A stretch of 64,000 nucleotides of DNA from Phoronis australis (taxonomy: Eukaryota; Animalia; Phoronida), in NCBI GenBank assembly GCA_002633005.1, contig NMRA01000424.1:72815-136814 (forward strand), written 5' to 3'. Positions 14,292 to 63,949 of this stretch are shown piece after piece. Position 1 is the first letter of the stretch. Every line of letters begins with the position of its first letter. Made by a program: the position numbers and the translations under genes. The notes below the pieces were generated by a model. It saw nothing but the letters and a program-made list of their open reading frames with translations, made no database searches and had not been told where the DNA came from.

Positions 14292-17200
14292 ATGCTCTTC
14301 TTTCACGAGGTTGCGTACTTATCACAACACATTATCGGAATTGGTTTGATTTCGTTACAAGTTTTCAATATTATTATACTAAAGCAATCCGAATTCCAGA
14401 ACAAAGTCTGCAATATTGATCCGCCAAAAAACATTGTGAATGCGTTGAGTTCAGAAATTCCGATTCCAAATTCAGTTTTAATGTTCGATGAGGAGTTGAA
14501 ATACACTAATCAGGGCAGGAACGTTGAAACTGATGACGGTTCAGGTATTATGTGTGAATAATTCTCGCGGTCCATTTCAAAATCCGGAAACTGATTGTGC
14601 CAGAAATAATGTTTATGTACTCTCGACAAGTAAATCAACGAACCCTAAAATGCGGCTAATTGTGAAGATATTTAAAGGAATTAGTTAACTATACCACTCG
14701 AAAGACAAAACATATTTTTGTTTTCATTTTTGACAATATTTTGGATAAACTATCAAATAATCTGAAATTAATTAAACATTCATCGAGATAATAACGCATT
14801 GAGAGTATACATTATGTTGAAATTTGACCCAGACAAGTTCCACGAGTTTTACCGATAAAAACTGTTAAAATAACAAGGTCAATGTAATATAAGTTGCGTT
14901 TGTTATTGACAAGTTTTAATAAACAAATGCAGAAAACAACTAGAAAGTACTTGAAGATGCTTTAACTCAAAATTTGAGGCTAATGACATCGGCTCAAAAA
15001 ATTTGAAAAATTGTCCGGTTTTCCTGTCGACCCTTGGGGCTCCTGTTTTCAAGGCCGGGTTTCGTATTTTTCGGTCTGGTTGCCGTTTTGAAGGTGTGGG
15101 AGCCTGTTTTACACCGAGATTCCAACTTCTATGGAACACCCTGATATCTGGGAGTAATATGAACGGGATTGTATTCCTAGAATATATGCGGACAGTGGGA
15201 TTACAATGTGTTGTTGTTACCCTCCGGACATTAACATGAAAATAAAAGTAAAAGAGAAGTATAATGGTGACGAGGGGATCAGTCTCTGCCCGTAGTGGGA
15301 GAGATGTCCTTCGTTGCTATGTTATGTGACGTTATGAGCCATGAGCTGTCTAGATATGGTACTGGTATAATGATTTTTCAGTTTCAGCCACGTTTGGGGT
15401 ACAGTGGTTGTCGAAGGGAGATAAATTCTATGCCTTCGTGAAACAAGCGAAATCCGGCAGTGATGCTCAAGTATTCTGTAGTCAAATTGGAGGCCGGGTG
15501 GCAGTGCCGACAAACCAGGATGAAAACACGTGGTTGGTAAATGTTGCGCGAGCGTTTGGTGGAAATGAGTGGTGGTTGGGCATCAGCGCAGTCCAAACAG
15601 ACCGAAATGGTCGACAAACGAGAGACTTCGTTGGCCCCTCCGGACAGCTGAATTATACACGTGAGTCAGTAGCAAAACGTTACGGTAATCCTTATTAATT
15701 TTGTACTCGGAAAATGGCGTTGTTTTACCTTTTTATAGTGTTTATTACGAAAAACACAATGTGCAAAGATAAGACATTGAGCCAAGGGAGCGTTAGAAAG
15801 CATTATATCGTTGGTTTACCTTTTTAGTGCTCTAAATGTAAACGTTGGTGTACTTTTGAAAACACGGGGCGTATATACGGAAAATGTGCCAACGATATTG
15901 ATGAGGACCAATAGGTATAGTAGAGAGTTTAAACTTTAATTTGTTGACTAAATTCTGCTTCTAACGATGCCATGTTTTTGTATGACGCTCGTTCTCACTT
16001 CATTATGGGTAACCCTCAAACTGTGGGAATTCATAGTTATGAGTAATGTAGCACTATAGAGTCAGGGGCCGTATTTGGGTGAGAGGGCGTTGGAGGAAAT
16101 TCCCGTTTGGAAAACGTGACCTACGTTTTTTGAAAAATGATCTTCACCAGACCAGCACTTCGTTAGCAAGAATTTCACTGGTCTTGCAAGGGATAAGTGA
16201 CCAAAGATAAAAGCATGTCACTCAAAATGAAAAGTTAGCCATAGCTTTCAGAAATTCTAAATATTTTAGTGTGTTCCTTTTATGACGTCACACAGACCGG
16301 GAAAATCTTTTTGTGCAAAATGAACACTGCAAATTAAATTATATTGCAAATAGTCTATTTCGGTAAAAAGAGAACAAACTTGGGCGCCAGTTGCAATACA
16401 AATTATTACGAGTGTGACCAATGTGGAAGAAAAGTTCGGAAAACTTGGTCTTTCATTGCTACGATGTCCAATCAAAGACAAGTGTCAGCTCTTTGGAAAT
16501 GATTTTGTTGGTATTATTAAGCGTACCGTATCGTGACAGATGAGTGTTTTATGGTAGTGACTAATAGGACCGTATCGTGACAGAAGAGTGTTTTATGCTA
16601 GCAACTAATAGGACCGTATCGTGACAGAAGATTGTTTTATGCTAGCAACTAATAGGACCGTATCGTGACAGAAGAGTGTTTTATGGTAGCGAGTAATAGG
16701 ACCGTATCGTGACAGAAGAGTGTTTTATGGTAGCGACTAATAGGACCGTATCGTGACAGAAGAGTGTTTTATGGTAGCGACTAATATGACCGTATCGTGA
16801 CAGAAGAGTGTTTTATGGTAGCGACTAATAGGACCGTATCGTGACAGAAGAGTGTTTTATGGTAGCGACTAATATGACCGTATCGTGACAGAAGAGTGTT
16901 TTATGGTAGCGACTAATAGGACATATTTTTCGTTTTACACTCTTACATCACACTTGATGTAAAAACGATTTAGTCAAGTAAATAAGAGTGTATCACAGTC
17001 TAGAAATAATTCGTATGTATATTCTCGGAGATTTCGGACTTTTGCACAAGTGAGATTTAATCGTTGTTTAGACTTAGATGTGTGGAGCCAAAAACTGACT
17101 TAAGTCTTAAGTCGCTTTTCATGAAACAGGGACCTGTTCCAACAAAACTGACTTAGCTAAGACAAATATTAAATTTTAGTAAATTTTATGATAAAACTTA

Positions 17201-31400: not shown

Positions 31401-34400
31401 GTGTATTCATAAATCAATATCCAGAGCATTGTGAAGCTTGCTTCAACTCCCTTAGTTGGCCTCTCAAGAAGTTAGCTGGGATATTCTAAGTGTTTTTTTT
31501 CTATGTATCGTTTTAACATTTTGGCAACATGCCGGTGAACAATTCTGAAATGACGTGGCAATACCCGCGCAGTTCAAACACCGGGAACATAAATCTACAC
31601 AGGCAATAAAAGCTGGAGATGTGTAAACAATGATCGACTAACATTCATATTCACCTTCACGCTTTTCACAAAGCGGTATCGTACTTTCTTAACATTCAAG
31701 TAAGTAAGCCATCCTCCCTAAACGGTCGCTTTTGTTTTTTAGACCGGCTCGTGGCGGCTCTGATGGTTTTCTTGTACTTCCGGTTGACGCACTCGGCACG
31801 AGGTACTGTTTTGCATTCTGGCAGCAGAAGACTGGGCCGTCACACGCGCTCGTCGTATCCGCTCACAACAACGAGGAACTGAACAACATCTATGTGGAGA
31901 CACCAAAGACAGCAACCAACGACTGGACAAACCCCGTCGAACGGTTTTCATTGCCAGCAGGAAAAGATTTAGAGATTGAGCTTTTTGCTAATGAGGTGAC
32001 TAGCTTTTTGTGCGTGATGCATGCACTTCGAAAAGATGCTAAGCCCAGTTTTTTTACCATTAACGGATATAAGCGCAGAATTCAGACTTCAGTGTTTGAA
32101 ACAAAATAATGCGTCTTATTCGAGTTCAACGACTCCTTACAAAATCTGCTCAACTGACAAGCGTGAGTAACGATTCGGGCGAGTTAATGGACCATTGTTG
32201 GGAAAGACCGCGGGTCTCAAACCACGCAAACCCCGTGACACAATGAGGGTGCAGTTTCAGCTAAACAATGTTCACAGCTTGGGGATAAACTAATTGTGCA
32301 ATAGCAGAGGATTTCGGTTTTACCCAAAACAGGTATTAGTGTTCGGTTAATGATGGGTCGAGTTTCAAACTTACAAGTTCATGAACGCAGTCGTTATCCA
32401 TGCTGTGTTATTTTTTGTTTCCACGTTAATTCAATGGGCGATTAAGGTGTGCTAGCGAAGAACGGCCCTGATATATCCTGAATTGACCGAGAGCAGGAAG
32501 CATATGCAGTTCAGAGCATATATGGGCGGCGCGCCATAGGGGGCTGGGGGGTTAGCCCCCACTTTTTTCAGTACTGTGCCGCCCATGTTTGTTGGATTAG
32601 TGTCCCACTTATTTGTAGCGGTGTGACGTTATTGAATTTCGCCCCATTTTTTCGTTATTCCAATTCCAGCTGAGAGTTATAGTGGGTTATTATGGAAACG
32701 TGGGCACTAAACATCCATTTCTTGGAAACAGGTAGCATTGTCATTTCTGAACTGATAACTCAACAACGTCGTTTTCGTTTGCAAATCCAGATAGTGAAAC
32801 CTCCCTGAATGTCATGGATACATGTATGCTCCTATTATGTTGACTGAAATGTCTTCAGACTGTTCATGTGTGTTTAATTATAACTCATTGCGGTATATAC
32901 GCATTCTTCGTTCGATATTATTCGTTGTATTTTGGGAATGAGGAACTTGTAATTGAGAAGCATCACCGTCGCTGATTCGGAGCACACCAGAGGCGCTTCA
33001 ACTGCCTGTTGCCGTGGATGTAGTGTTAATACACACTAGCTTATGATGCTACATTTCCAGCTTGTAGTGCTCACAGAAAACACAAACAAGGGACCGTACT
33101 GCTTGAACTCTACAAAACCTGTCGCGGTGATTGTTGCCTCTCGCTGGGCTACACAAGGCGACAAAGACAGTGGGCGGTATGGTCACATGGCCGAGATGAT
33201 TCCACCGATAGACCAATGGGGAAACAAGATACACGTCGATGCACTTGTCGAGCGAACGAATACCAAATGTCACGTGTTGCATACGCATGAAATGGGCGGC
33301 AGTAGACTAAGTTTGCAAGGTAATTAAGATCGACTTACAGTTATGTACTCTGCGTGTGCGAACTACAATATTAAGAGGGTTGAGTTCAATATCATCGCGG
33401 CGACAAAATTGAGCCAAAATCATGAGCTCACATTGAAAATGCACGGTCATATCTCGCGAAGAATCTCGCGAGATCTGGCTTTTTACTGAGACAATAACTC
33501 GCCCAGAAAGTCATGTGACTTTCAAAGAGGCAGACCACGGATTGAGAATGGTTTCTGGGTCTTTTGTAACCTAGTAGACGGATAGCCATGATTTTAACCG
33601 CCTGTTGATCATATCCTTTTGCTGTTCTAATTGAAATTCGTGCACTGCGCAATATGAAACACCTGACTTCAGAGGCCCGCACATTTTAGCCGAGGTATTC
33701 CGAATAAAACTGATACACACCAATAGCAGTAGTTTCGGTAAAAAGACTTTTGTGGTGCTGAAAATTTGACCATTCATCCCACTTGAGTAATAGCTGTAAA
33801 TGGTTTTACAGTGTGACTGGCAAACTCTTTGCTAAATTTCATAAACTTGTTTATTAATTGAAACATTATGGGGATTATGCAACAGGAATTGTCAACTGAC
33901 TTATTGACTATATTCGCAGACTGTAACAAAGAATGGAAAACGTTTAATGAATTGTCGGGTCCAACGTCAGATAATCCAAAGATGACTCTCGTGATGACTG
34001 GCTCCCCGGCTGTCCTGACGTACATGCCACCTGTCGAACAGTTTACAAACTACTACATGTTCGTGGTGCCCGAGTCTAGTCATACATTTCGCAATGGAAC
34101 GGTGATGCCCTACACTAGCACGCTGTCAGTCATCATTCAGGAGTACAAGATGGCGGGACTTTTGTTGGACGGTGTCAAGTAGGTGTCTTACCTCGAAAAC
34201 AGCTTGCTGCCTTCGACTGCGGATAGGAAACAGTACCGCGGGTTACACTGTACTTTAATTTGTCCAGCACTGATTCTCAACGTACAATGCGCGAAATAAT
34301 GTTTTTGCTCGGACATGGAAGTTTGTGTACCTTGCACTTTCATGAGAGCGTTTTTCAATGTCACAAAGTAGATCTAGTGATTCGAGGTGGGTGGTCCTTT

Positions 34401-37400
34401 GACGTGGATGGTGACACAGCTGTCTGGTAACTTGCCCACAGCTATACGTTCACTTATTTAATGGACCTTTGCAGACTTACTCCAATTTTCAAGTTTAGGG
34501 TTTACGAGGGTACAGATAATTACTTCTCCAAAGATGTAAAAGGATCGAGTCGTTTTTGAAATTTCTGATAAGCCAATAAGTGAGTTATGTGTCTTTTAAT
34601 CGTATGCGTAACACCAATGAAATGAATAAGTGACCGTTCTCAGTGTGCGAGTCCATTGAACCAATCAGTGATGAATACTCGCTTAAGTTTTAGGTCTACG
34701 TATTTAAAAACTGTTATCATTACCATTACTGTCATAAAAACCCATAGCATCATTTGTACTAGTAGAAGGCCCAGTTATAACTAGTATATGACACGTCTCC
34801 GTCAATGGGCGACTTGGCGCTTGTGCGACAACCTATGAAAATGCACGCATTCAGCTAGTCACGTGGGACGGTGAGATCTAGTCGCCCAAGTGCCGATTAT
34901 CTAGTTCCGCAGATCTTGTTTCGTACGAGAAAAACAAGAACTTGCAAGATTTCGAGCGATATTGCCAAGTTTTGCAATCGAAGCTCGTAATCACTCTACT
35001 CTTTTCAGCGAGGTGCTTGCATCTACGAAAGGCTCTATCTTGCTTTCTGCTCGCAATCTATGCTTTTGGCAGTTCGGGGGTGCGAATGTCTGACGGGCAA
35101 AATTCTGGCTAATACTCTGCCCTGGCCCACCCCAACTCAAAATCCTGGAACCACCGCTGAGTTTTCTTTACTCATTAGCACAACTTATTGAATGATTGAC
35201 GACGATGATCAACGACTTCTTTACAGGATCGAAAAGGTAGTTCACGACCTCACCATCGGCATTATGCCTAATTTTGTGATTCTTCACGTCCCCGTGACGT
35301 CAGGAGCTCATCAGTTGTACCACGAACATTCCCAGAAGAGCTTCGGTGTCGTTGTGCATGGCGTCACTAGCCGCGGTGACGCGTACGCGTTTCCCGCTGG
35401 ATTGTTGCACACGAAGACGTCCAAATGGTGCCGCAAAAGACCGTACAAGAGCGAATACCAGGGAAATGGTATTGACGATGACTGCGACGGTGAGGCGGAT
35501 GAAGAGATACTTAACTTTAATGATGACGACAAGGACGGAAAAGTGGACGAAGACATAACAGACATGCTAAGGACGTATATAATCGAATCACCTTCTGCAA
35601 AAGGTGAGACTTTACATGTATATTTCCTGTTAATACTGGTATACAATAGCAGTTTCCCTTTTATTGTTCTGACTTCCTATGGGGCATTGAGCAGGGGATT
35701 GTTACTTTTTTGGGACTATTCATATATGGTCATCTCGACTTTTGATCTCGCCATGTTCTCATTATCACGACTTCTTATCTCGTTATCTTGCCATTTCATC
35801 TCGGTATCTCGACCTCTGTCTTTCTTCTGGTTATTTTGACCCGGCTTTAGCGTGTTATTTAGATTACATGTCGTTATTATTAGACTTCTAGGGCTACACT
35901 TCGGTAGAAACACTTCCGAAAATTTGTTTCTCAGCCCTTGACAATTATCGTTAATTTGTATTTCCGCTTGAGGTTGTCAACCAAAGAGGTTCTATAGTGT
36001 AAGTCAGCGACTATTGCTTACCAATGATGAAATAGAAACAAAGATGGTGACGTGCAGTTACTTTTGGATGCTCAGGAGTCCTGTTAGCGGTCACTATGTC
36101 TGTGGGGATTTTATTTACGGCGCTGTTCTCATTTTTTCAAATGCGTTATGGGACGGTTGTCTGTTCAACACGGATCCATTGCAACATGCCATTTGTGCTT
36201 GTGCGACATAGATTGAAAGTGAGACAGAAAACGCATGGCAAAAAATAGTTGACTACGTAGATTAGCGAATCTGTTGCACAAGATTCTCGAGGCGCGCGCC
36301 ATCCTATATCACGCTAAGTAAAATATCATCACCTCAAGCACAGACTAAAAATCGGATTACACGTCCCCAAGTTATTGGTACTTTCATTTGATGTTTTCAA
36401 ACCAACGACCATCCCGCGATGAATTTTAAAAATAACAGCAGCGCCGTAGAAGAAAATCCCTCGATTATTGACGCGAAACTATTGACCGCTGGTGAGTTTA
36501 AAACTCCAAAATCTGTCCAACGCATACATGTATGCACTGCATATCGATACCGCCGACAAGACCTATTGATGAGAACCTCCGATTGCACACAGGCAATTTA
36601 GGTCGATCATAGGGTAACAGTTTGTCATAAAAGATCATTATGTGCACAATTTATAATTTTGACGGTTACTTATATTTTATGTCCGTAAGAGAATAATTCG
36701 CTTGTTCTCTTACGTAAATGACACATCGCAGCAAGCAAAAAACGATTAAGCGAGATCTGGCGAGACGTCTGTCACATACATAACACAAGAAAATTCATCA
36801 GGCCGCTAGATTTCGTAAAACTTTTAAGAGAATTAAAATACTCGTACAGTAGAATACTGTTGATAGAAGTGTTGCAAATGAACACCCCTTTTTCTGAAAA
36901 ACTAACTTGTGGCTGAACTTTTAAAGGTTAGATAAGTGAAGGATTAGTCTCCCTGCTGCCTCGCTGTTTCCCTGCGTGCCGCTAGGTCAGTGGTCGGTAG
37001 CCAGCACGCAGGTGTCACTTAATTTTCCTCGGGAAATGTTTTTACACCGGCGTTTCTGATTGGCTAGTCGACTTCTCAACAGGCAGCGCTTTACGCAAAC
37101 AAACTGACATGACTGATGGACTGAGGTGTAAGTGTGGTCTGTTGTACAGACAAATCGGTGCTTAAACTTTATGTTCAGGAAATGTGAATCCTAGAAATTG
37201 TGGTTGCGCCTTTTCGGAGTGCATCTTTCTACTTACGATACTGTCCTGTATTCATACAGTAGGAATAACACACCGGTTAAATCGGCCATATATGTGTTTA
37301 TTGTACATGTATGTGCTTCAAGCACGCGGCTATTAAACATCACTGCAGAAACGAAATAGTTGCTGCGACGCCATTTGCATGACAAGGATAAAAATCGTTT

Positions 37401-38729
37401 ACAGTCAGCCATTTTTTTCACGGTGTTGTAAAGCTAACCAATGACTGCTGATGTTACATCAACAAATGCTAAAGCGCGTGACACTGCGTTATACCTGCGT
37501 GGCTAGGCATGTTTGGAACCAGCGAGGTTCCCTGCGTGCCGCTTGGTAGCCAGCACACAGGTAGCAGGCAGTAGCACGCGCTTTGTCATTGGTTGATGTA
37601 ACCTTGGCAGTCGTTGGTTAGCTTTATAACAAAATGAGAAAATGGCGGACTATGTACGATTTAATTTTAGCCTTGGCATGCAAGTGGCGTAGCAACAACT
37701 ATTTCGTTTCTGCAATAATCCTAATGTTTAATAGCTTGAAGCGCATACATGTACAATATACACGCCGTCATCTGGCCGATATAACTAGTGTGTTATTCAC
37801 ACTGTATGAATACAGGACAGCAACGTAAAAAGGCAACGATGGTAGAAAGATGCACTCCAAAAGAAAGCAACTACAATTTTGTGGGATTCACATTTCTTGA
37901 ACATGAGTTTTATGCACCAATTTGTCTGCACATCAGACCACATTTACACTTCCTCCATCAGTCATGCCAGTTTGTTTGCGTAACGCGCAGAAAAGTTCAA
38001 AGTTACATTACTCGTGATATTGCGGCGATTTCCGTAGAAATGATTCAGAATTCTGACACATTCCATTTCCCATAAGCAAGCCTCAAATGGCCAAACCAAT
38101 CAGCGCCATCTTGATGCTTGGAAACGAGGCTGGCTAGAAGCTTGGTTAGACGTGAGAAGATTTCGTGCATTTTCTATGAGTTGTCTCACTGTGCGTTCTT
38201 TTTTCCAGAAATGAGGACATCTAGACAGGTAGCTAGGTCTTCGAATTCGAATACGCTTGTGATAGTCGCAATGATGGCATTTCTAGGGCTTTTGGTGGTT
38301 TTATGTACAGTTCTGATAGCTGTGAAAAAACGAGCTCTCCTGAAGCAACACTGCTGCAAGAAGAGCGGTGCGGAGGGGTGGAGAGAAATGGAAAGCAGAC
38401 GACGAGTTGAAACGTCAATAGAACCGAATAAAGACGATAATAAAAAGGTTAAAACGGCACCCGTTGTTCTCCAAACAAATGAAGAGAAACCGCGAGAGGT
38501 GGCCCCATCTGATGGAATGTTGGAAAATGCGACAATTGGTAGTGCGACAACATCGGTCATCGCGACAACGACAGCCAGTAAGGAACAAAAAACCGATATT
38601 ACTTCAAAAACGCAACAGGAAAGTGACGAAATTTCCTACACCTCGTCAGTCACCCCTTCAGACATTATGTTGTCGTCTCAGGCATCGAGTTTTAGCAAGT
38701 TTAGTCAGGTGTCGTCTTTTGCGAAGTAA
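25401..38729 (+). CDS. Type I membrane protein with IgGFc-binding protein N-terminal domain, acidic metal-binding-like motif, TM helix and S/T-rich cytoplasmic tail, ~695 aa
   Basis: Exons 25401-25639, 27515-27694, 31743-31995, 33061-33319, 33920-34178, 35227-35603 and 38209-38729 (phases 2,2,0,1,2,1; total 2088 nt). Signal peptide, then GSEFVFAFP, SDGFLVLPVDALGTRY, STKPVAV, HMAEMIPPIDQWG, MPPVEQF, LLLDG and YAFPAG, the typical IgGFc_binding motif order. Then GNGIDDDCDGEADE and TM TLVIVAMMAFLGLLVVLCTVLIAV-KKR. Confidence 0.85.
26614..26715. mobile_element. ~100-bp palindromic mini-element; second copy ~20872-20980
   Basis: Imperfect TIR taggacctcgctaaaa / ttttagctaggtctta. Internal gagattacgtgagatattgccgtg is shared with 20900-20940. 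Confidence 0.55.
29215..31490 (+). mobile_element. Decayed Ty3/Gypsy-like LTR retrotransposon (RT, RNase H, pol C-terminus, PPT and 3' LTR) in intron 2 of the IgGFc-like gene
   Basis: ELQRKFDE..VEYLN.S..VKKSNGGCRLVTSF..LMPNVDSVLRDIAQWK..SDL..FY.IPL..SMKYC; RNase H GGFFNAKLRKHQITWL..EVEAL; C-terminal DKNKTQARERYLV..RKFTSSQFR. A purine tract at ~31212-31244 is followed by TGTGG (putative LTR start at 31245). Many frameshifts; integrase core not seen. Confidence 0.8.
37145..37935. repeat. Long diverged inverted repeat (two opposed copies of a repeat element) in the last intron of the IgGFc-like gene
   Basis: ~37145-37470 is the reverse complement of ~37585-37935 (e.g. tgtcctgtattcatacagt / actgtatgaatacaggaca; ggagtgcatctttctac / gtagaaagatgcactcc). 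The mirrored ORFs 37233-37421(-) and 37634-37828(+) are homologous. Confidence 0.8.
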
Positions 38730-38898: not shown

Positions 38899-39010
<112 letters not shown>

Positions 39011-40442
39011 TTTAATTTATCTCATTGGTGCAAACTACCACCACTACAGTCCCGTGACTCTCAAAATGAAGAATGCCGTCTTTGCGCCGGGATGCCGCTG
39101 TGGTCACGGGCGCAAACAAGACTTGGCAGTAGGTCTACATAAGGAGGTAGACTATACGAATATCTCTGATTGCTCGCCTTTTGAGACCTGCGGTGTTAAA
39201 GCCTCTAGACAAAATCCTTATGTTGTTATGATTGAAGTCGAACGTGCGCAGACATGAAACACCTCCGAGGGATAATTTGACGGTACAATTTCAAAAATAC
39301 TCAATGTTCGGGAAGACTCGATCGAGTAGATATTTAACAACGAGAGACACTCTGAAATACAATGTACTTTGAAGTGGCTGAGACAGTGAGGTCTTGTAAC
39401 CGGTGAGTTCATGGACAACTTTATTGTGAGTGAAAGTCATAAAGTATTCACTTCTAGTCTCCGATCTGTAAAACTGAACTGAACTTTAGTCGCATCACAA
39501 TACAGTAAATTTGAATGATTGTACTTTTTATGCTTGATTTGCATTTTGTATCGGTGGTTGAAAAAGTAGATCAAAAGATGATTCTCAGCACAACGAACAT
39601 TGTTTTCTCCGGTCTATCTTTTTGCCTGTCGTTCATTCGTTCAAAATCGCCTGCCAAGGGCACCGTTCTTAAGACCTTGGACAAAATTAGACCTTACGCT
39701 CCTGTTAACAACAGCTGAATGAAGGTCTAGCCTGTTAATTGTGTGCGCATCACAGAAATAATTTATGAAAAAATGCTCAATAACCAGCCGTTATGTGTAT
39801 GTTCTCACGGACTTCTCATTTTCGCTCAAGTGACATTTGTGAACTGTGACACCAAATTTCTTATTTAAGACTTCAGTTCCTTTTCATGACACAAACCCCA
39901 GAGTTGTGCAGAGAAATTTTTTAATTATGCTTCCACTTAGCAGTTATGGAGTAAAGTTTTCGCCACGTAATCTTTAGCGCATCACAGTGTGAGGTATAAT
40001 TTATGAGGATTACCTGTTTGTATGCATTTCGAGAGACCTCGTGCTTTTGCTGAGATGGAATCATTATTTTCAGGTATAGTTGTGTAGAATGGTACACGAA
40101 ATTTCTGACTGCGATTGATTTATTTATTTACCATCCGCTGACCGCAAACAAATAAGGGTAATGCAATACAATGTAGGAATTTAACACAACGTTACACAAA
40201 GACTGAAAGACAAATAAGACGAAGGTGCAAATAAATTAAAAAAGGACAATCCATGCACGTGTGACACGAAAACGTAGATACTTGTCTCCATGGTGATCCG
40301 CCCCATATTATACAATTATTGACATTCACCTGAGCAAAGCTACCATGCCTTGACACAGGTTTGCATTAACCTAGTACTTATTTTACGTTGATTTAAGAAC
40401 AAATATGAAACCGGGTGACATAAAAAGGTTTACAAGGTCGGT

Positions 40443-40503: not shown

Positions 40504-41774
40504 AAGAGGAGATCCGTGTTACTTCAACAAAATATTTTTAAAATTACGTAACACCTGCACCAACAAGACTATCTGCAAAACTGTGGAGTAGAACTTGGCA
40601 AAGAATATGTTTTATGAAAGTACAAATTTGGTGAAAATTGAATTTTGACTTTATACCAGTCTGTCATTAATTAGGTCGCTTGACGTTGCTTTTTCGTAAA
40701 ATTAAGTAAAAAAAGAAGAGTACACTCGTAGAAAAACGACAGGATCACTAACATGAGTAAATTTCTTGTGATATAAATGTTCAAGATAAAATCTCAAAAA
40801 CACGATCATAGTATCCATAATCATCATTTGTTTTTGTTTTATGCAACTACACCACTCAGCGGCTGACGTCATCTAACGTGAAAATAGAATACTTAACACG
40901 CGCAACAATCTCATGTTCAGCAAAGGGCATTGCACCGACACTTTTACGCGATGAAAAATGAGACGCATAATTTCCATAAAAACGATATTCTAATTCAGTG
41001 AAATTTTTCTCTCGTGTTCTCTCATTTGTAAATCACCGATTTCCAATTTGAATGCAAGTGTCGTGTAGTCGGGATCCTTTGACTTGAGCGTTATAGTCAG
41101 TTACTAGTGGTAACCTACTTCAGCAGACGATATATTCCCGGTCGAAGCTTAGCGTGATAAAATGTGTAGTAAGCTATAACAGTTGCTAAACCTTAATTTA
41201 TAGATTCACTTCTATTTTGTTTTATTTTTCAATTGGTTTTAAGTAAAGACATTATTTTACAAAAACATCTCGGCTTTTCTTAAAAGGTCACGACCTCCGA
41301 CCCCGGGCCTGTGACGTAGAAAGTAGTAACAAAGCCGAGGCGAGTCGAGAAAGGTAGATCGATTCATTGCAATGTTTCTCGTTCAGTATGTGGTATAAAT
41401 AGTAACGCCCCTCGGGCGATAATTCCCCAAAATCCTCTCGGGCTCTAGATAACGGGGGATAACGACTTCGTCATGTAATAATCTATATTTATTTCACTTT
41501 TTTGTTTAGGTTTGAAAACGCATATCTTAGTATTGGCATGCAAAAGTATTGCGCACGGAGCTGAACCCAAAGTGATGGTTTAAAAAAAACATATTTTATG
41601 AAGTGTTGTGTGCTCAGGTGGTAATTTTAGCGAGAAGAGGCATCCATATTCAACGCGCGTTAAATACGGAAAACACATATTCAACGCGCGTTCAATGCGA
41701 AAAAGTCAATCTTCCATATCAAACTTCTCAATACGACCCGTAATCCATGGCCATACCATCACGCGTAGGCTATA

Positions 41775-41926
41775 GGATAAATACACAAAACGTACTGAGA
41801 GTGGCGTACATGAAGTAATATCCCACTCGATCTTATTCCGCGTATCGACATCGACCTTCGGTCTCGGTCGATACGCGGAATAATGTCTCGTGGGATATTA
41901 CATCGAGGTACGTTTTGTATTTATCC
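41775..41926. repeat. ~150-bp hairpin with perfect 17-bp core stem
   Basis: ttattccgcgtatcgac (41833-41849) / gtcgatacgcggaataa (41867-41883). Outer arms are aatatcccac/gtgggatatt and ggataaatac..aaaacgtac/gtacgtttt..gtatttatcc. Confidence 0.85.
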
Positions 41927-43043
41927 CATGCGCTTCGAATCCCTAAGTTTCTTGCATTTTTTCGGCAGATTTTTCAAATACTTCATCCAGACTGTTCACA
42001 TGGCGGATCACATCCTATATGTACATGTATGTACTTGCGCGTTAGGTTGCAAGTTATCTCTTGAAAAAGAAACAGTTTTAAAAGTAACGATTTATTTCTT
42101 GAAAAGAGGTAACAAAGATGAAAACAACGGCAACTCAGCAGTGAATTGTAACATGGAAATAGTTAAAAAAAACAATATTTGATATAATTTCCTAGGAATC
42201 GGCGCCTGAGTTGCAGACGATATACTGTTCAGCAATTGAAAACTGAGACATGAGTGTCTTATAATTAACAGTTTTGTTCCAGATTTTACGTTTAGGGCCT
42301 GGTTGCATATCGAGTGTTAGTTACACTGTTGCAACTGTATTACTTTAAACTATAATCGGAAAGTTTGATGATGGAACTGGCTGAAGACGTAGAGTCGACA
42401 TTGACCTACCTTTTGAACTTTCCATGTCAGAGGTCGCTGTTAAAGTAGTGTGGGAGGAGAATACGGAAAACTTTATTTCATGGCCGTATTTCCCTCGACA
42501 GATTCAATGCGCGTGGGATAAAAATAGGTTATACAACGCAAGTCTTTGTACCAGTGGTTATTATATCGAGATTCGTGATATGCAAAAGTATTTGAACGAG
42601 GGCGAAGTGCAATAAAAACCCGAACGACATCAGTAGGTAACCATTGCACTGTTGTGATGTAAAGACAACATCTCTATTTAGAGAGTTTGAAAGAACTGAA
42701 ATTAAACTCGTTAAAACGGATCAAAGTCGTGTCTTCAATAAATATTATTATTATTATATATATGTAAGTGTGTATACATTCAAATTTCCAAAATCTTTCT
42801 GAAAACCTTTTTTTAAAAAGTCCAAATAAGTTCCTAAATTTATAGCCAATACATCCAATTCATAGTCAGTTTACTAACTACTAAACATTTCATAATAAAA
42901 TTTTCAGTCCGCAGCAAGTAATACGCGTGTTCTCACATTTTGCTGGTCACGCGCGGTCATATAGTTTACAAATCTTCTCGCATTTATCCACAGTTAAAAC
43001 ATTTTGACAAATTCTCGGGTGTGTTTTCAGACGGTCGTGAAGG

Positions 43044-46000
43044 ATGAATGGTAAGCAACTAGTAACGAAGGAGGTTTGATGAATTCGATGTTCAATAGAA
43101 AACTTTTTAGAAGCAGTCCAATAAGTATTTCGAAATGTTGTGGATGAATGCTATACTACATGAATGACACTTTCCAACGCCCTTAACTCACATACCGTTC
43201 TCCTTTCAATAGAATCGAACGTAACATACACGTCAATAGAACTCGGCGCCATTTCGACAGTCACGAATATGAAAACAACACCAACGATGATGACAAAGTT
43301 GGGTGAGTGACGTCACGGGGAATAAACGATAAAATGGACAATTTGCTTAAAGGGATATAATTGATTTAACTCCGAAAAATGCATTTTAGGGATTAATTTG
43401 AATGGGACAGACTGCTGGAAGTTATTTGCTTGGATAACAGCAATAAATCAATAAAACACGTTGTTTTTTTTGTGATTCGGTTTCAAATCCGCAATTCTCG
43501 CCTTAGTCAGTCAAACATTCGTTGAAATCAAGGCCAATGACTTAACTGTGTTAAATACGCTTAAAATATCGAGTGTGGTTTAGCCCCACCAGTTAGACTG
43601 CGACTTCGGGGGTTGCGGGTTCAATTCTTCGCTGAAGCTCATCTCGGAACTCCACATTTCTAGCCAATAATGTCCATTTGCTGACCAACGTTTCTTACAC
43701 ATGTAAATAGAATATTTTAAAAGTTGAACAAGAAATCAACAAAATAATCGACACACGCTGACTGTATATTTAACAATAAAGGTATTAAAAGAAAATGATG
43801 ATCACTTTGAATGACGATGAACACTAAGTTTCCAGGGATGGTATAGCTTAACGAAGGGAACGCTTATGAAGGCAACAGGAACGTATGCGGAATTAAGGAG
43901 GTACAGAGGATTTGGGGTGGTAAGAATATAAAAACACGCCCGCAAAAGAAAATAGTAGGGATACTAGACTTGGTACAATATACTGCATTAAGTTACAAAC
44001 AACTGATTAAATGGTTGTCTAGCCTACATCAGGCTTAAATTTAACATTCTAAAGTTAAATCGAACGTCTGTCCCTTGCAAAGTAAGGTTGGCAAACCCCT
44101 AGTTACATTCTAGATCCGTCAGTGGGATAGCCCTGTGACAAAACTTCTATTGGTATGTCAATAATGCCAGTGTCTGTGACTACCAAACTTTACCAGATAC
44201 TCGACTTGAAATTTGACTAATTGCACCCCATACTTCAAGGGGTTGGTCCGTATATGAGTTGCGTCTTGAGCCTGAGTAAAGTAGCCTGAGATCCTCATCG
44301 AAACCGCAGCTTACACTTGTGATATTACTCGTGGTAATTGCATTTTAGGAAATAACCAAACACTTCCGTCTACCCAAGGGCAAGACGAGTTATCGACGCC
44401 ACTGTCAGCCATAGTTGGAACACTTTCCGCTGTTCTTGTATTTACGGCTTTCCTGGTTTTCTGGCGGGTGATGCGGAAACAGTCTGTGTTGGAAACGGAA
44501 GTGCTTCCTGATAAAGGGGAAATTGCATTATTTGAGCAGGTCACCCAGAGTTCACCAACCCCTATCTGGACAGTCGATGGTTTTATGCAACACGGACAGC
44601 TAAGATGCCGTTTGTTGGAAGCGTTGATTAACGAAGACGTTGGTAAGGTTGTCGACGTTGCAGTGCATTACGAAGAGTTTAGAGACGCACATAACTTACA
44701 GCACGTGACCGATCACGTCATTTGCGCAGCTCAAACATTTTTAGGTCCTTTGATAAGAGATTACCGCCTACTCCAAATGAAACTTTACAAAGCATCCACT
44801 TCTAATTCCCGGGAAGATATGCGTGATTTTTTGGTAACTTACTCACAGGTTCGTCGTAAGCACGGACTCGGCTCTTTGACCACATCAGAGGGTGCAGTTG
44901 ACGACTATACACTACCAAATAATACTGTTCATCTGAGTGAAATGAGCTTCAACGACACGCACAGTAGATTGGATCTTGCGGCTCGACGTAGTTTAACTGA
45001 CGTTCACAAGGCATGTTTCTACAAACGCCTCAGCCAAAATTTAGAATATGAACAATGCGTGCACAACAGCAGCAATGCGTCTATCTTTCGGAGCTATAGT
45101 GATGCGAAACTGGGAAATGAGGTACGAAGTTCTTGGTTGCGAAGGTTCAGGCCGCTAAGGGACCTGAAAGAAGTGAAAGAAAGTTTACTCTTGTATGAAA
45201 AACTATACAACAAATGCACCAAGAATAAAATAGCATTATGTGGAGACGAAAACAAATCTGGCGAACTGTACCCAATACATGAAAATAATAGTCAAACAAA
45301 ACACAAAAATATACCTGGAGTTGACATGTGCGTCAGTTCAACAGTGCATCTTGAAAACCAAGAAACTGGTTGGACGGGCATAAATGAGTCGGCTGCACCA
45401 AGCCAGGATGAGGAGGAGCGCGAGCGCGTCTGCCGCGAGCTCGAGAAGTTGCAGAAAGAAGTGGAGGAGGCAGTTAAGAGTGGAGTCGATTACAGAATCA
45501 GAATGGCCACCAGACAATACAGACAGTTATGCAGAAACGCCAATTTGTGTGCGCCTGAAGTTGAGTTTCTTGCACAACCTGAAACAACGTTCGACATTGA
45601 ACCCTTGCGAATTACTTTGACTACGGCTACGCAGGAGCAAGATCTGAAAACTTTAGAGGAGGTTACAGCTAGAATATGTCAGAAAAATTTGCAAGCTTTG
45701 ATGGGACCATCTTTCATACAGGCCGTAAAACTGCAAGAAAGTCTTGAAACTGTGAAGTGCTTGACAACTGCTGTTTTGAATCTGGACCGGGAGACAATGA
45801 TGACGATGCGACGTTACGACCACCCTCCAAAAGTCGTTCATGACGTAGTAATGGCAATTCTCCTCGTGCTCGGCGACCCCGAAAGTGAAACGTGCGACTG
45901 GACCTCGTGCCAAAAACGATGCACCACGCTGCGCACACGCGACAGTCCAGGGCTGATGAAGAGAGTTTGTGAGTTTGATATCAGAAAGCTATCACCTGAC

Positions 46001-49000
46001 GTTGCCAGGCGTGCATTAGACATAGTTCAGGATTTTTGCGAGGAGGAGGCGAATGTCGTAAACATTGGTGCAGCCGTTTTGTATTCGTGGGTTCGAGTGG
46101 TTTGCGAACATTGCCTTGCATGGTCTGAACCTACATTTGACTCCCCAGTATCTTCTAAAAAGCGCACGAAGAGAAAGCGCAGTAGGGATCACGTTATTCA
46201 AGAAGAACTCAAGTTAAAAACTGCTTTAAGAGAGTCATTGGAAAAGAAGGACGTAAGAGAAATCAAAAGTCGGTTATCCAAGTACATAATGTACTTTGAA
46301 AAAAGGAAGGTCTGTGTAACTAGGGATAACGATTTAATCACAAGGGCTCGCCAGGCCATGTTTGAGCTGAAGGAGAATACGTTTTTGGAAATCATGAATG
46401 AAGAAATAATAGACTCTCTTAAAAAAGCCATTGCTGACAAGAATCCAAAATTAATAAAACAGGAGCTAGAAACTTATGAGATGTTTTGTGCGGCTGAAAG
46501 TGGCAAAATTACTATAAACCACAATCTAGTAGCAGACGCGAGGCTTTGTGTGGAAGAACACGACATACTCAACGACCTCATTACAGCAACGGAAAGTAAG
46601 GAATGTTGCTCGCTGAAAGAGAGTCTGCAACGGTACGAAACCTTTTGCCATCAAAACAGTGAGAGGATTGTTGCCGATGAACGGCTCATAAATGAGATTA
46701 AAATTTGCATTGAGCAAAAGGAGGTTGTGGATTCTCTCAAAGTCTCCCTTGATAAGAAACAATCTGATTTACGAGAAAGGTTGGAGTATTATACAGCTTT
46801 CTGTCAACGGAATGCACACAACGTTGTCGCCGAGAAGAACTTGATCGATAAAGCGAAGCTACATTTAGAGCAAATGGACATTTCTGATTGTTTAAGGCAA
46901 GCAATTCAAGAACGAAACTATGCTAAAATAGAACTACACCTACGAACTTACGAAATCCTTTGTCAGGAAAACGTGTCCCACTTGTCACTTGATGAACAGC
47001 TGGTATGTGAGGCAAGAAACACTTTAAAGGAAGTAGAGATCATGAACGCTCTAGCACAGGCGGTGGAAAGCAAAAACATCAATAAAATACAAACTCTTCT
47101 TGAGAACCATGAGAGTCATTGTCGGGCATGTAAGACTGTACGTGCTGGTGAAGACACATTAATTAACAAAGCAGGTGCATTCTTGGAAGAAAACCGACTA
47201 CTGGACACTCTCCGACAATCAGTTGAGAAACGACACTATTTCGAGGTGATAGATTATCTGTCTCGCTATCGGGAATTTTGTGCGAGAAATAAAGAGGATA
47301 TAGACATCGATGAAGACTTGATTGAAAGAAGCAAAGCATGTTTGGCGGAAGCTGGGGTGATTGAGACACTTAAGCTCGCGGTGTACAAGAAAGACCACTT
47401 TGCCATACAAGAAGAGATGGCGAAATACAGATTGTTTTGCAACGCTCGAGAAGACACGTTCTGTGCAAACGCTGAGCTATTAAACGAAGCGCAGGCTGTT
47501 TTGGAACAAAAGGAACTACAGGAGGCACTGGTGGCAGAGGGGGATACATTAAGAGAAAATCTTAAGCACGCGATCGAGCACGAAGGTAGCTTGGCAATCA
47601 AGGAATCTCTTTTTCATTACAAGTCATTCTGCATGGGTAATCAACACAATGTGGAGCTGGACGAGGAAATAGTTGCAGACGCGTGGGCTAAAATTGACGG
47701 TGAAGAGCTGAAGGAGCAAGTAAAGGCTGAAGAGAACTCCTTGAAGCACAGACTCTTGAAAGCAGTACAAACGAAAGCACATGTCGGCGTGTCACAGGTT
47801 TTATCGAGATACGAATGCCTGTGCAAGAAGCACAACGACATTCTACGTCCAGACAAGCGGCTGGTGCGAAAAGCCATGAAATGCCTAAAAGAGGAAACAG
47901 GGGCATTCATTAAAAACCAGGTGGCCGATTGCGAGAACAGACTGCGTGAAGGCATCACAGATAATGATTATATAGGTGTCTCTGACGCCTTGGAACAGTA
48001 CGACCTCATCTCTAAGACTTATGAAGGAACGATTACTGTTGACGAAGCACTGTTGGCCACGGCTAAAGATCTGCTTCAAAAACAAGACAAAATCAAAGCA
48101 ATTGAAAACATGAACGTCCGCTTAAGGGATAAGCTTGGCAAAAGGAAAAAAGGAGTTCAAAGACTTGAAGGGGTACGAACAGCTTTACGTGAGTACGAAA
48201 GTGCCCTGAAAGAACACCCCGGTCTAGTCTCTACTGATGACATTCTTCTAAGGCGCGCCTATTCTTTTTTGGAAAAGTTTGAGCCTGTAGAACTGAAAAT
48301 TTATTTGGCAAAGGCACTGAAATCTTCTGATGAAAGTGAAGTCCGAAGAACATTTGATAGGTATGAGAAGTTTTCGGAAGAGCACGACAGTGTTGATGCT
48401 ACCATTGAAGACTTGGCGAAACAAGCGAAACGACTCCTCGACCAGTTTGATCGAGAACACTTGGCAGAACATCAGCAGAAAGAGCGTATTCTTAAAGATC
48501 ATTTAAAGCAAGCTATCGTTTCTCAACATGTACAAGACATATTGGTAGCTTTAGCGGACTACAAAACACTATCAACTAAGGTGCCTGAAGTAGAGGATCG
48601 CTGCATTATCGAAGAGGCCAGTGCGACTATTGAAGTACTCGAGAAAACAAAAGCTTTGGAAGAGCTTCAAAGAGACTTGGACGACACAGGAAGAGAATTA
48701 GAAAAGGCAGCAACGTCAAACGACATGCTGCTGGTAGAACCGTTTTTGATGAGGTACAAACGTTTGGCCAGTACGGGTGGGGAAGACCTGAAAACTGATC
48801 ATCAATTGATAGCTAAATGTGAAATGATCGTCAACAAACTGAAGCCAGCTGTTACACACTGCAACAACAACAACAACAACAACAACAGCAACACCACCAA
48901 ACAGGATCTCACTGACGCACTGAGGAAAGTGAACAGCTCCTTGATCGATGAGGTGATTACTGAGGCTTATCATAATTACATAACCATTGGTGAAGAAAAT

Positions 49001-49543
49001 GCAGCTGCCAAGTCTTTTGGGGAAACGCCAACGTGTCTGAAGGTTGCTAGAAGTCTTCGCCGTATGGTAGATGCGTTAAGATTTGGGAATTTGAAACTAT
49101 TAAAGGACGTCTTGCACCAGATTAAAGTTGGAGGCGAACTTCGTGAAGGACTAAAGGATGGGGTCATGGTAACTAGTAAGTGCTGTACAGATTTGAACAA
49201 AATTAAGCAGCTGACAAAGGAACTCCAGTCCTTAAAAGTATTGGGGCTATTCGAAGAAGGGGAGAAAACAGAGATCACTTGCAACATCGTTAAAGCAATG
49301 TACGTTGTACTGGGTGAAAAGGCCAACGGTGTGGGTGAAGAGATTCCAAGCGATCTTTTGGAAAGAGTTAAGACTTTCGACTTAAAAACTATTGATACAG
49401 TCATTGCCACAAAAGCGCTTGCTTGTTTTGGTTGCTTTTCTGTGGAGCAGAGTTCTGCGTGTAACAAACCGATGGAAACATTATATAAATGGATCGATGT
49501 CACGTGTAATTGTTGTATGGTTGCTGAAGAATTTCTCTCTTAA
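43044..49543 (+). CDS. Uncharacterised ~1763-aa type III single-pass membrane protein with ~53-aa helical repeats and two dynein-MTBD-like domains
   Basis: Exons 43044-43050 (ATG AAT G|gtaagc), 43213-43302 (tcaatag| ... |gtgagt) and 44349-49543 (ttttag|), all phase 1. N-terminus MNESNVT...GNNQT has three N-glycosylation sequons and is S/T-rich, followed by TM SAIVGTLSAVLVFTAFLVFW-RVMRK and a 5.2-kb uninterrupted ORF. The big exon is certain; the two small exons are inferred. Confidence 0.85.
48862..48891 (+). repeat. (CAA)n coding microsatellite giving poly-Asn
   Basis: caacaacaa... encodes CNNNNNNNNSN. Confidence 0.9.
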
Positions 49544-50168
49544 CATAAAAGGTAGTGCTAATAACAAAATGACCCAATCGTTCATTTATAGAACAGGGTA
49601 GAAGTCTTCTTGGCATAGAGTCAGAATGGGTTGCTACGATTTAGCGACACGTGTCCAATACCAGCTGAACAAAAACGAAATCTCGTTCATGCAGTTTACT
49701 TTCGTCAAAATCATTGCGATAAAACGCCTAAAATTCATTCTAAACTGTATTTGTATCATCAAAACGAATCTTTGGTCCTTGTAATAAACTACCAATGCCG
49801 CGGGTGCTAGCAATGATCTCGGCAACATTTTAAGTGCTGTGACCGAAAAAAATTTGAAACAATTGCGAATCCAATGCAAATTATCTCAACTTAAACTCTG
49901 CTCAACGCATGCATATGCTATTACATTCCATTCGCATTTCGACTACCTCTAAAAAGCACTGGTTCCGATATAAATGTCTAGCGTTTTTGAACAACGTTTT
50001 ATCATTAAAAAGAAGCAGAGTTCCAGTGGTACTGAATGACACTAAACAAAGGCATTTAGGACGAAAGAAAGAAACACCTATACAAAAAAATTAGGCCTGG
50101 GATACTAGGTGCTACGCGACCTGCGTATAATGCCGGGGACATCGCAGAATGAAAGGTCCTTTCAAACG

Positions 50169-56408: not shown

Positions 56409-63949
<7,541 letters not shown>

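Follow-up and report, generated by a model that had tools for sequence, protein, structure and literature searches.

A predicted single-pass membrane protein of Phoronis australis carries a motorless module resembling the dynein microtubule-binding domain

The window analyzed here, a stretch of 64,000 nucleotides from a Phoronis australis contig (NMRA01000424.1), consists of intron-rich eukaryotic DNA with approximately 40% GC. An open reading frame (ORF) at 44285-49543 (+) comprises 1752 codons from stop to stop, or 1691 amino acids if counted from the first ATG. Joining the exons 43044-43050, 43213-43302, and 44349-49543 yields an in-frame product of 1763 amino acids without internal stop, and an in-frame TGA (43038-43040) is located two codons upstream of the ATG in exon 1, which likely starts at or before approximately position 42978. 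For expression, RNA runs with the same species label were chosen, and the analysis covered about 18-19% of each raw run. Both splice junctions had been proposed in an earlier, sequence-only reading of this DNA and were recovered in two of these runs, X1 and X2, where 23 and 25 reads, respectively, crossed 43050^43213 and 14 and 18 reads crossed 43302^44349, both introns having GT..AG ends. The spliced RNA thereby joins the part encoding the transmembrane (TM) helix to the large exon 3. Across 44322-49443, the RNA depth amounted to 15-45 on one strand in X1 and X2, but it dropped to 1-1.6 in the bin 49444-49837, which makes the 3′ UTR and the last approximately 30 codons less certain. Reads of the gene were absent from X3, which originates from the same study as X1 and X2, and from the contigs of X4; since only X1 and X2 showed reads, a tissue- or stage-restricted expression is likely. 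The gene is real, spliced, and expressed. In the antisense direction, reads of low depth (up to 9) were found in X1 and X2 at 43928-45503, over the last part of intron 2 and the first part of exon 3. All features of the gene are summarized in Table 1.

Several further elements were observed in the window. Directly upstream, the exons within 15354-38729 (+) gave weak Pfam matches to a C-type lectin (15354-15695), an IgGFc-binding domain (31708-32106), and a MopE-type metal-binding motif (35192-35590), and the final ORF (38115-38729, +) encodes a TM segment followed by a cytoplasmic tail; possibly, the whole region represents one large surface receptor gene. Reads at 39200-39590 were present in X1 and X2 and hardly in X3, the same pattern as for the gene described here, and may stem from the 3′ UTR of this putative receptor gene. 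A long (TA)n microsatellite occupies 38900-39008, while interspersed repeats at 40776-42745 were heavily covered on both strands by reads of 90-95% identity with many loose ends. On the opposite strand, 61770-62237 holds an ORF of 156 amino acids that may be a piece of an NSF-type AAA ATPase.

Table 1. Features of the motorless MTBD gene, with positions in the window.
Feature	Positions	Strand	Evidence or remark
Exon 1, coding part (ATG)	43044..43050	+	Junction reads (shorter side: 73 letters)
Exon 2, encoding the Ser/Thr-rich ectodomain part	43213..43302	+	Reads across both junctions (X1, X2)
Exon 3, coding part: TM and entire cytoplasmic region, to the stop	44349..49543	+	ORF, RNA reads
Single predicted TM helix, aa 51-71	44402..44464	+	Hydropathy; basic residues on the C-terminal side
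Juxtamembrane cytoplasmic region	44465..45568	+	Search without homologue; may hold 1-2 strongly decayed repeats
Module 1: helical hairpin leading into a domain of dynein-MTBD fold (predicted), core 45782-46093	45569..46135	+	Profiles, AF2, structure matches
15 tandem helical repeats of ~53 aa (13 strong, 2 weaker)	46211..48817	+	Leave-one-out HMM, shuffles
AAC microsatellite read as poly-Asn linker	48854..48903	+	Sequence, ORF, reads
Module 2: hairpin and decayed MTBD, core 49232-49495	49007..49519	+	HMM, hhalign, alignment

The ORF contains one strong hydrophobic segment, with a Kyte-Doolittle value of 2.32 compared to 1.39 for the next best, and an RxxRK motif follows it. The 50 amino acids ahead of it comprise three N-glycosylation sequons and 32% Ser and Thr and no signal-like stretch. 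At the level of prediction, hydropathy and sequence fit the proposed type III single-pass topology, in which a short, glycosylation-rich, signal-less ectodomain would lie outside and the basic residues inside. For the juxtamembrane region, a word-indexed search among proteins of 963-3066 amino acids gave no homologue. Two segments of it are candidates for additional repeats (aa 100-158 with 6 of 1000 shuffles scoring as high, and aa 260-320 with 4 of 1000).

The segment at approximately 45770-46110, hereafter domain 1, had been likened to dynein's microtubule-binding domain (MTBD), and comparisons of profiles and structures bore this out. A single-sequence search (phmmer against PDB) returned weak dynein matches with a best E of 0.025. 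The family profile, built from a 60-sequence alignment (query plus 59 short matches), found 73 PDB sequences at E≤0.01, led by the yeast dynein MTBD (E 1.4e-15); among the 60 of these 73 matches listed, all were dynein heavy chains or MTBD constructs except for one chain of 4583 amino acids labeled RSPH9. On the family HMM, domain 1 scored 154.7 bits. The similarity did not extend to the Pfam family MT (PF12777, gathering threshold 24 bits), as neither the whole protein nor either of the two MTBD-like segments matched it at E≤1. The alignment-based AF2 model of domain 1 reached a pLDDT of 93.8, while the single-sequence model (pLDDT 40.7) was set aside. Foldseek placed dyneins at the top ranks for the former model, and VIA-align against 48,161 chains returned dynein MTBDs at ranks 1-5 (Z 16.7-11.4), with Z 16.7, 147 aligned residues, and an rmsd of 4.0-4.2 for 3ERR/5AYH, and Z 13.5, 123 aligned residues, and an rmsd of 2.4 for 6L4P. 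Judged by the predicted model, the dynein MTBD fold of domain 1 is secure.

Like the dynein MTBD (PF12777; PDB 3ERR, 5AYH, 6RZB, 6KIO), domain 1 is predicted to form six helices after a long CC1-like helix, and it shares the Pro-Pro after H1, the Trp in H3 and before CC2, and the equivalents of K3117 and R3124. In contrast, the equivalents of E3122 and R3201 are lost, and the score remains below the Pfam MT threshold. The differences from a dynein heavy chain are larger. Instead of an AAA+ ring, a tail, and a long stalk, the protein has a short helical hairpin and a predicted membrane anchor; ahead of H1, the AF2 model displays a 3-helix hairpin unit and a CC1-like helix of approximately 24 residues, and no long antiparallel stalk coiled coil. 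A Walker A motif (GxxxxGK[ST]) is absent from the ORF, and the Pfam scan of the whole protein gave no match to AAA or dynein families at E≤1, in agreement with the motorless architecture claimed initially.

Apart from dyneins, VIA-align retrieved 9fqr_Xl (Z 10.5), 9ya2_L (8.9), and 9e5c_2e (8.4), with unrelated folds from 6.9 down, and the radial-spoke chain 7jtk_C aligned to the domain 1 model with Z 11.8 and an rmsd of 5.1. These four apparently non-dynein chains (Z 8.4-11.8), taken from structures of an intraconoidal microtubule, a radial spoke, and axonemes, share an MTBD-like fold without a motor, although Z values of 8-12 fall in a range that, for helical proteins, the tool regards as ambiguous. 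The fold-bearing part of 7jtk_C presumably makes no microtubule contact. By comparison, 9ya2_L belongs to a microtubule-bound structure (Z 8.9-9.0, 124 aligned residues, rmsd 3.0) and is likely Toxoplasma ICMAP2, since its 162 resolved residues fit the '10% of 1678 aa' given in PMC12819142. ICMAP2 is described there as binding between protofilaments of an intraconoidal microtubule, and PMC10774369 ascribes no recognizable domain to it; dynein goes unmentioned in the body texts of both articles. Thus identified, 9ya2_L is a possible precedent for microtubule binding without a motor.

Between the two MTBD copies, half of the protein is taken up by an array of repeats that was absent from the sequence-only reading. 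Leave-one-out HMM scores of the 13 strong repeats ranged from 16.7 to 51.3 bits, a level that 0 of 200 shuffles reached in each case, and for the two weaker ones 0 of 1000 shuffles scored as high. Further repeats at ORF aa 158-205, 380-432, and 1538-1640 did not rise above shuffles. We infer that the repeats would form a helical rod or solenoid. No homologue of them was found by a word-indexed search among proteins under 963 amino acids, nor any match among PDB sequences, and the Atlas contained only unnamed clusters, all under 0.9. A comparison of the 53-aa repeats with the hairpin of the module gave an hhalign probability of 56% over 25 columns, versus 4.5% for the reversed control; this hints only weakly at a descent of the repeats from the hairpin, which we do not claim.

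The C-terminal 192 amino acids, in which a second, degenerate MTBD copy had been suspected, were scored with an HMM built from 135 segments of relatives with the query excluded. This domain 2 reached 37.4 bits, with the match taking in the upstream hairpin, whereas the maximum was 6.3 bits in 1000 shuffles and 2.7 bits for the reversed sequence. The profile comparison resulted in an hhalign probability of 93.7%, and domains 1 and 2 aligned directly with E 5e-8. The suspicion is thus substantiated at the sequence level, and we regard domain 2 as a real but decayed copy of the MTBD. It does not contain the E-x-R-x-Y-x-x-P-P motif of H1, and the Trp-bearing H3 helix is deleted in the alignment. 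Due to the loss of the Pro-Pro motif and this helix, a canonical tubulin binding by domain 2 appears unlikely. A quick tree of 151 rows placed domain 2 among protist tandem rows, and this placement was disregarded as a flagged long branch.

An exhaustive search of 1.84 billion representatives revealed 199 proteins carrying a related module at E≤1e-3, 150 of which were listed. Among these 150 matches, 128 contain the full core domain, none has 2500 or more amino acids, and the module ends within 60 amino acids of the C-terminus in 104 of the 120 single-copy proteins. The upstream hairpin is included in 99 of 123 non-tandem domain instances. A Pfam scan of 99 of the 150 listed relatives, mainly the longer and higher-ranked ones, assigned Ig-like_KY to 36, often together with a transglutaminase-like core, while other scanned relatives were CLCA/VWA, CD20-like, and LRR proteins. 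Some relatives, such as P0030 with 24.6 bits, pass Pfam MT. In 8 of the 150, a strong hydrophobic segment (KD≥2.5) was present, with two borderline rows (2.0-2.2) left uncounted. Among 30 members looked up, those with a name belong to annelids, molluscs, Macrostomum, a sea cucumber, amphioxus, and Phallusia, besides three tandem-MTBD proteins of protists; almost every one is labeled 'uncharacterised' or takes its name from another domain. Domain 1 itself had no homologue in the word-indexed search among proteins of 963-3066 amino acids, and the metagenome contigs contained no relative; in the Atlas, matches at 0.87 led to mollusc-dominated clusters, two of them partly labeled MT, which is a lead only. 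In the open literature, no paper was found that describes hillarin/KY, CLCA, or other membrane proteins with an MTBD. Two 'MTBD-like' literature matches concern TTLL11, which is unrelated. The module family is apparently widespread in invertebrates and undescribed.

Three types of relatives can be compared with the protein. KY/hillarin/LTD-1-type transglutaminase-like proteins (XP_009018530, KAK6172896, CAH1802903) carry the same hairpin and MTBD module, but as a single C-terminal copy without a predicted TM helix, whereas the protein described here combines a TM anchor with two copies and 15 repeats and, according to the Pfam scan, the Transglut_core and Ig-like_KY domains are absent. The membrane relatives, i.e., amphioxus CLCA-like XP_035689228 and XP_078700756, CD20/MS4A-like XP_066272931, Phallusia CAB3263194, P0073, and P0098, likewise have a TM segment and, after it, a cytoplasmic hairpin region with an MTBD-like domain, and P0073 also shares the short signal-less N-terminus. 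However, they contain one C-terminal MTBD, sit on a separate branch of the tree, and their helical units do not match the repeat HMM, to which 0 of the 150 listed module relatives matched. In Branchiostoma, the unannotated C-terminal hairpin and dynein-MTBD module was observed in P0035 and P0047 (both CLCA-like), in P0083, and in P0092 (CD20-like/MS4A-like). Finally, tandem-MTBD proteins occur in three named protists (Cyanophora, Pharyngomonas, Gefionella). They are likewise MTBD-like without a motor, but no TM helix is predicted, they pass or approach Pfam MT, and their tandem domains more often keep K/R in H6 (14 of 26 at the R3201 column). Motorless proteins with 2-5 tandem dynein-type MTBDs are P0036, P0059, P0061, P0071, P0095, P0097, and P0112, and P0095 (Cyanophora) adds a P-loop and TPRs.

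The origin of domain 1 was addressed with a 47-row tree (LG+G4), whose rows were picked from a first quick tree and which contains no dynein outgroup; the composition of the query was flagged. Domain 1 joined 21 rows, among them KY-type proteins from annelids, molluscs, and a flatworm, with a support of 95/95, apart from a 16-row group that holds the other TM proteins. Forcing it into this latter group was rejected with an AU p of 0.02, the groups having been chosen after seeing a tree. The likely source of domain 1 is therefore a spiralian KY/hillarin-type gene and not dynein directly. The 95/95 grouping and the AU result also make a separate fusion of a KY/hillarin-type donor to a TM anchor likely, but not proven. 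As the other TM-bearing versions sit in a separate part of the tree, a repeated use of the module at membranes is suggested.

Whether domain 1 may bind microtubules was approached through the contact residues. According to PMC7042235, yeast dynein forms salt bridges to tubulin via K3117, E3122, R3124, R3152, R3159, and R3201, of which E3122 and R3201 contact alpha-tubulin, while K3117 and R3124 bridge to beta-tubulin. Residues were mapped via the alignment of the family profile with the yeast MTBD and pairwise DNAH6 alignments, and the numbering was consistent with the range of the structure chain. In domain 1, the equivalents of K3117 and R3124 are both R. The equivalent of E3122 is T, although 119 of the 123 non-tandem relative domains have E there, and that of R3201 is V, a position at which only 18 of 122 non-tandem relatives have K/R. 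R3152 is replaced by T, followed by a Lys-Arg in mid-H3, which corresponds to an alternative arrangement in Dictyostelium described in the same paper (PMC7042235), and the equivalent of R3159 is ambiguous beside an insertion. Overall, domain 1 has lost both alpha-tubulin contacts and kept the beta-tubulin contacts of H1, its H6 is acidic, and the core carries a net charge of -2, compared to a median of +3 and a 10th percentile of -2 across 122 relative domains. Across the family, the interface positions of H1 are retained (E in 119 and K/R in 97 of 123), which suggests a conserved, tubulin-like partner. For domain 1 itself, microtubule binding appears uncertain and partly doubtful from its residues.

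With regard to function, we tentatively favor a weak membrane-microtubule tethering via domain 1. The protein would be a type III membrane scaffold whose domain 1 likely holds microtubules weakly and independently of ATP near the membrane, through the retained basic residues of H1 and the mid-H3 Lys-Arg facing beta-tubulin. The module would have been taken from a spiralian KY/hillarin-type gene and fused behind the TM anchor, and the predicted rod of 15 repeats would end in the decayed copy, which likely no longer binds tubulin. Without an AAA ring, the hairpin in place of dynein's stalk may fix the affinity: as PMC6629372 describes H2-H6 as rigid and H1 and CC1 as setting the affinity, a CC1 held by the hairpin would imply a fixed affinity. 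Tethering is favored because of the modeled fold, the Arg residues at K3117 and R3124, the mid-H3 Lys-Arg, and the conservation of H1 in the family, as well as the motorless precedent of 9ya2_L and the membrane-anchored versions in other invertebrates (8 of the 150 listed). It is weakened by the lost alpha-tubulin contacts, the exchange of R3152 for T, the acidic H6, and the negative net charge, but also by the presence of the fold in 7jtk_C and the ambiguous Z values of the non-dynein matches.

The same lost contacts and acidic charge also speak for a reading in which the MTBD fold serves as a protein-interaction module without tubulin binding and the scaffold recruits a cortical partner instead, e.g., septin or components of the actin cortex. 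This is quite possible, since KY/hillarin-type proteins are the closest relatives and, by analogy, Drosophila hillarin acts with a septin and LTD-1 shows an actin-like pattern according to PMC3718969 and PMC3081291; the radial-spoke chain 7jtk_C displays the same fold. However, the retained basic residues of H1 and the conservation of dynein's tubulin-facing E and R in the family argue against it. It is improbable, by comparison, that this is a lineage-restricted, fast-evolving gene with two MTBDs as decaying leftovers, whose function would reside in its TM anchor and the rod of repeats or be negligible. While the repeats and the juxtamembrane region without homologue in the searches made, the near-invariant E lost from domain 1, the decayed domain 2, and the long branches would suit such a relic, the 5.2-kb exon is open and expressed, and domain 1 keeps the full fold core with its high HMM score and model confidence. 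An artefact or a broken fragment of a dynein heavy chain, for which the missing Pfam MT match could speak, is hardly credible and largely refuted by the spliced RNA reads that join the TM helix to the large exon, besides the lack of an AAA motif, the nesting of the domain among non-dynein modules, and the absence of proteins of 2500 or more amino acids among the 150 listed matches.

The dynein MTBD is normally treated as part of a motor, with its affinity switched by the stalk. Extending the tethering model to the family, we consider it possible, but rather doubtful, that invertebrates possess an undescribed class of motorless 'dynein feet', in which a mobile hairpin and an MTBD on transglutaminase-like scaffolds, EF-hand-like, LRR, and, at least twice independently, membrane proteins would staple membranes or the cortex to microtubules; the gene described here would be a long-armed, membrane-anchored version with two feet. 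Its architecture, considered unfamiliar in the sequence-only reading, is indeed new for a known fold, but it is less singular than assumed, with the module in 199 proteins and several of them membrane-anchored, and the interest is mostly owed to the family and not to the derived member studied here. If the stapling function holds true, a new kind of membrane-microtubule linker would exist across annelids, molluscs, flatworms, echinoderms, tunicates, and amphioxus, and its members would provide natural fixed-registry variants of the MTBD for testing which contacts set the affinity. Should the module lack tubulin binding, the fold would have been reused for another partner. Either outcome would account for the unannotated C-terminus of many KY/hillarin-like proteins.
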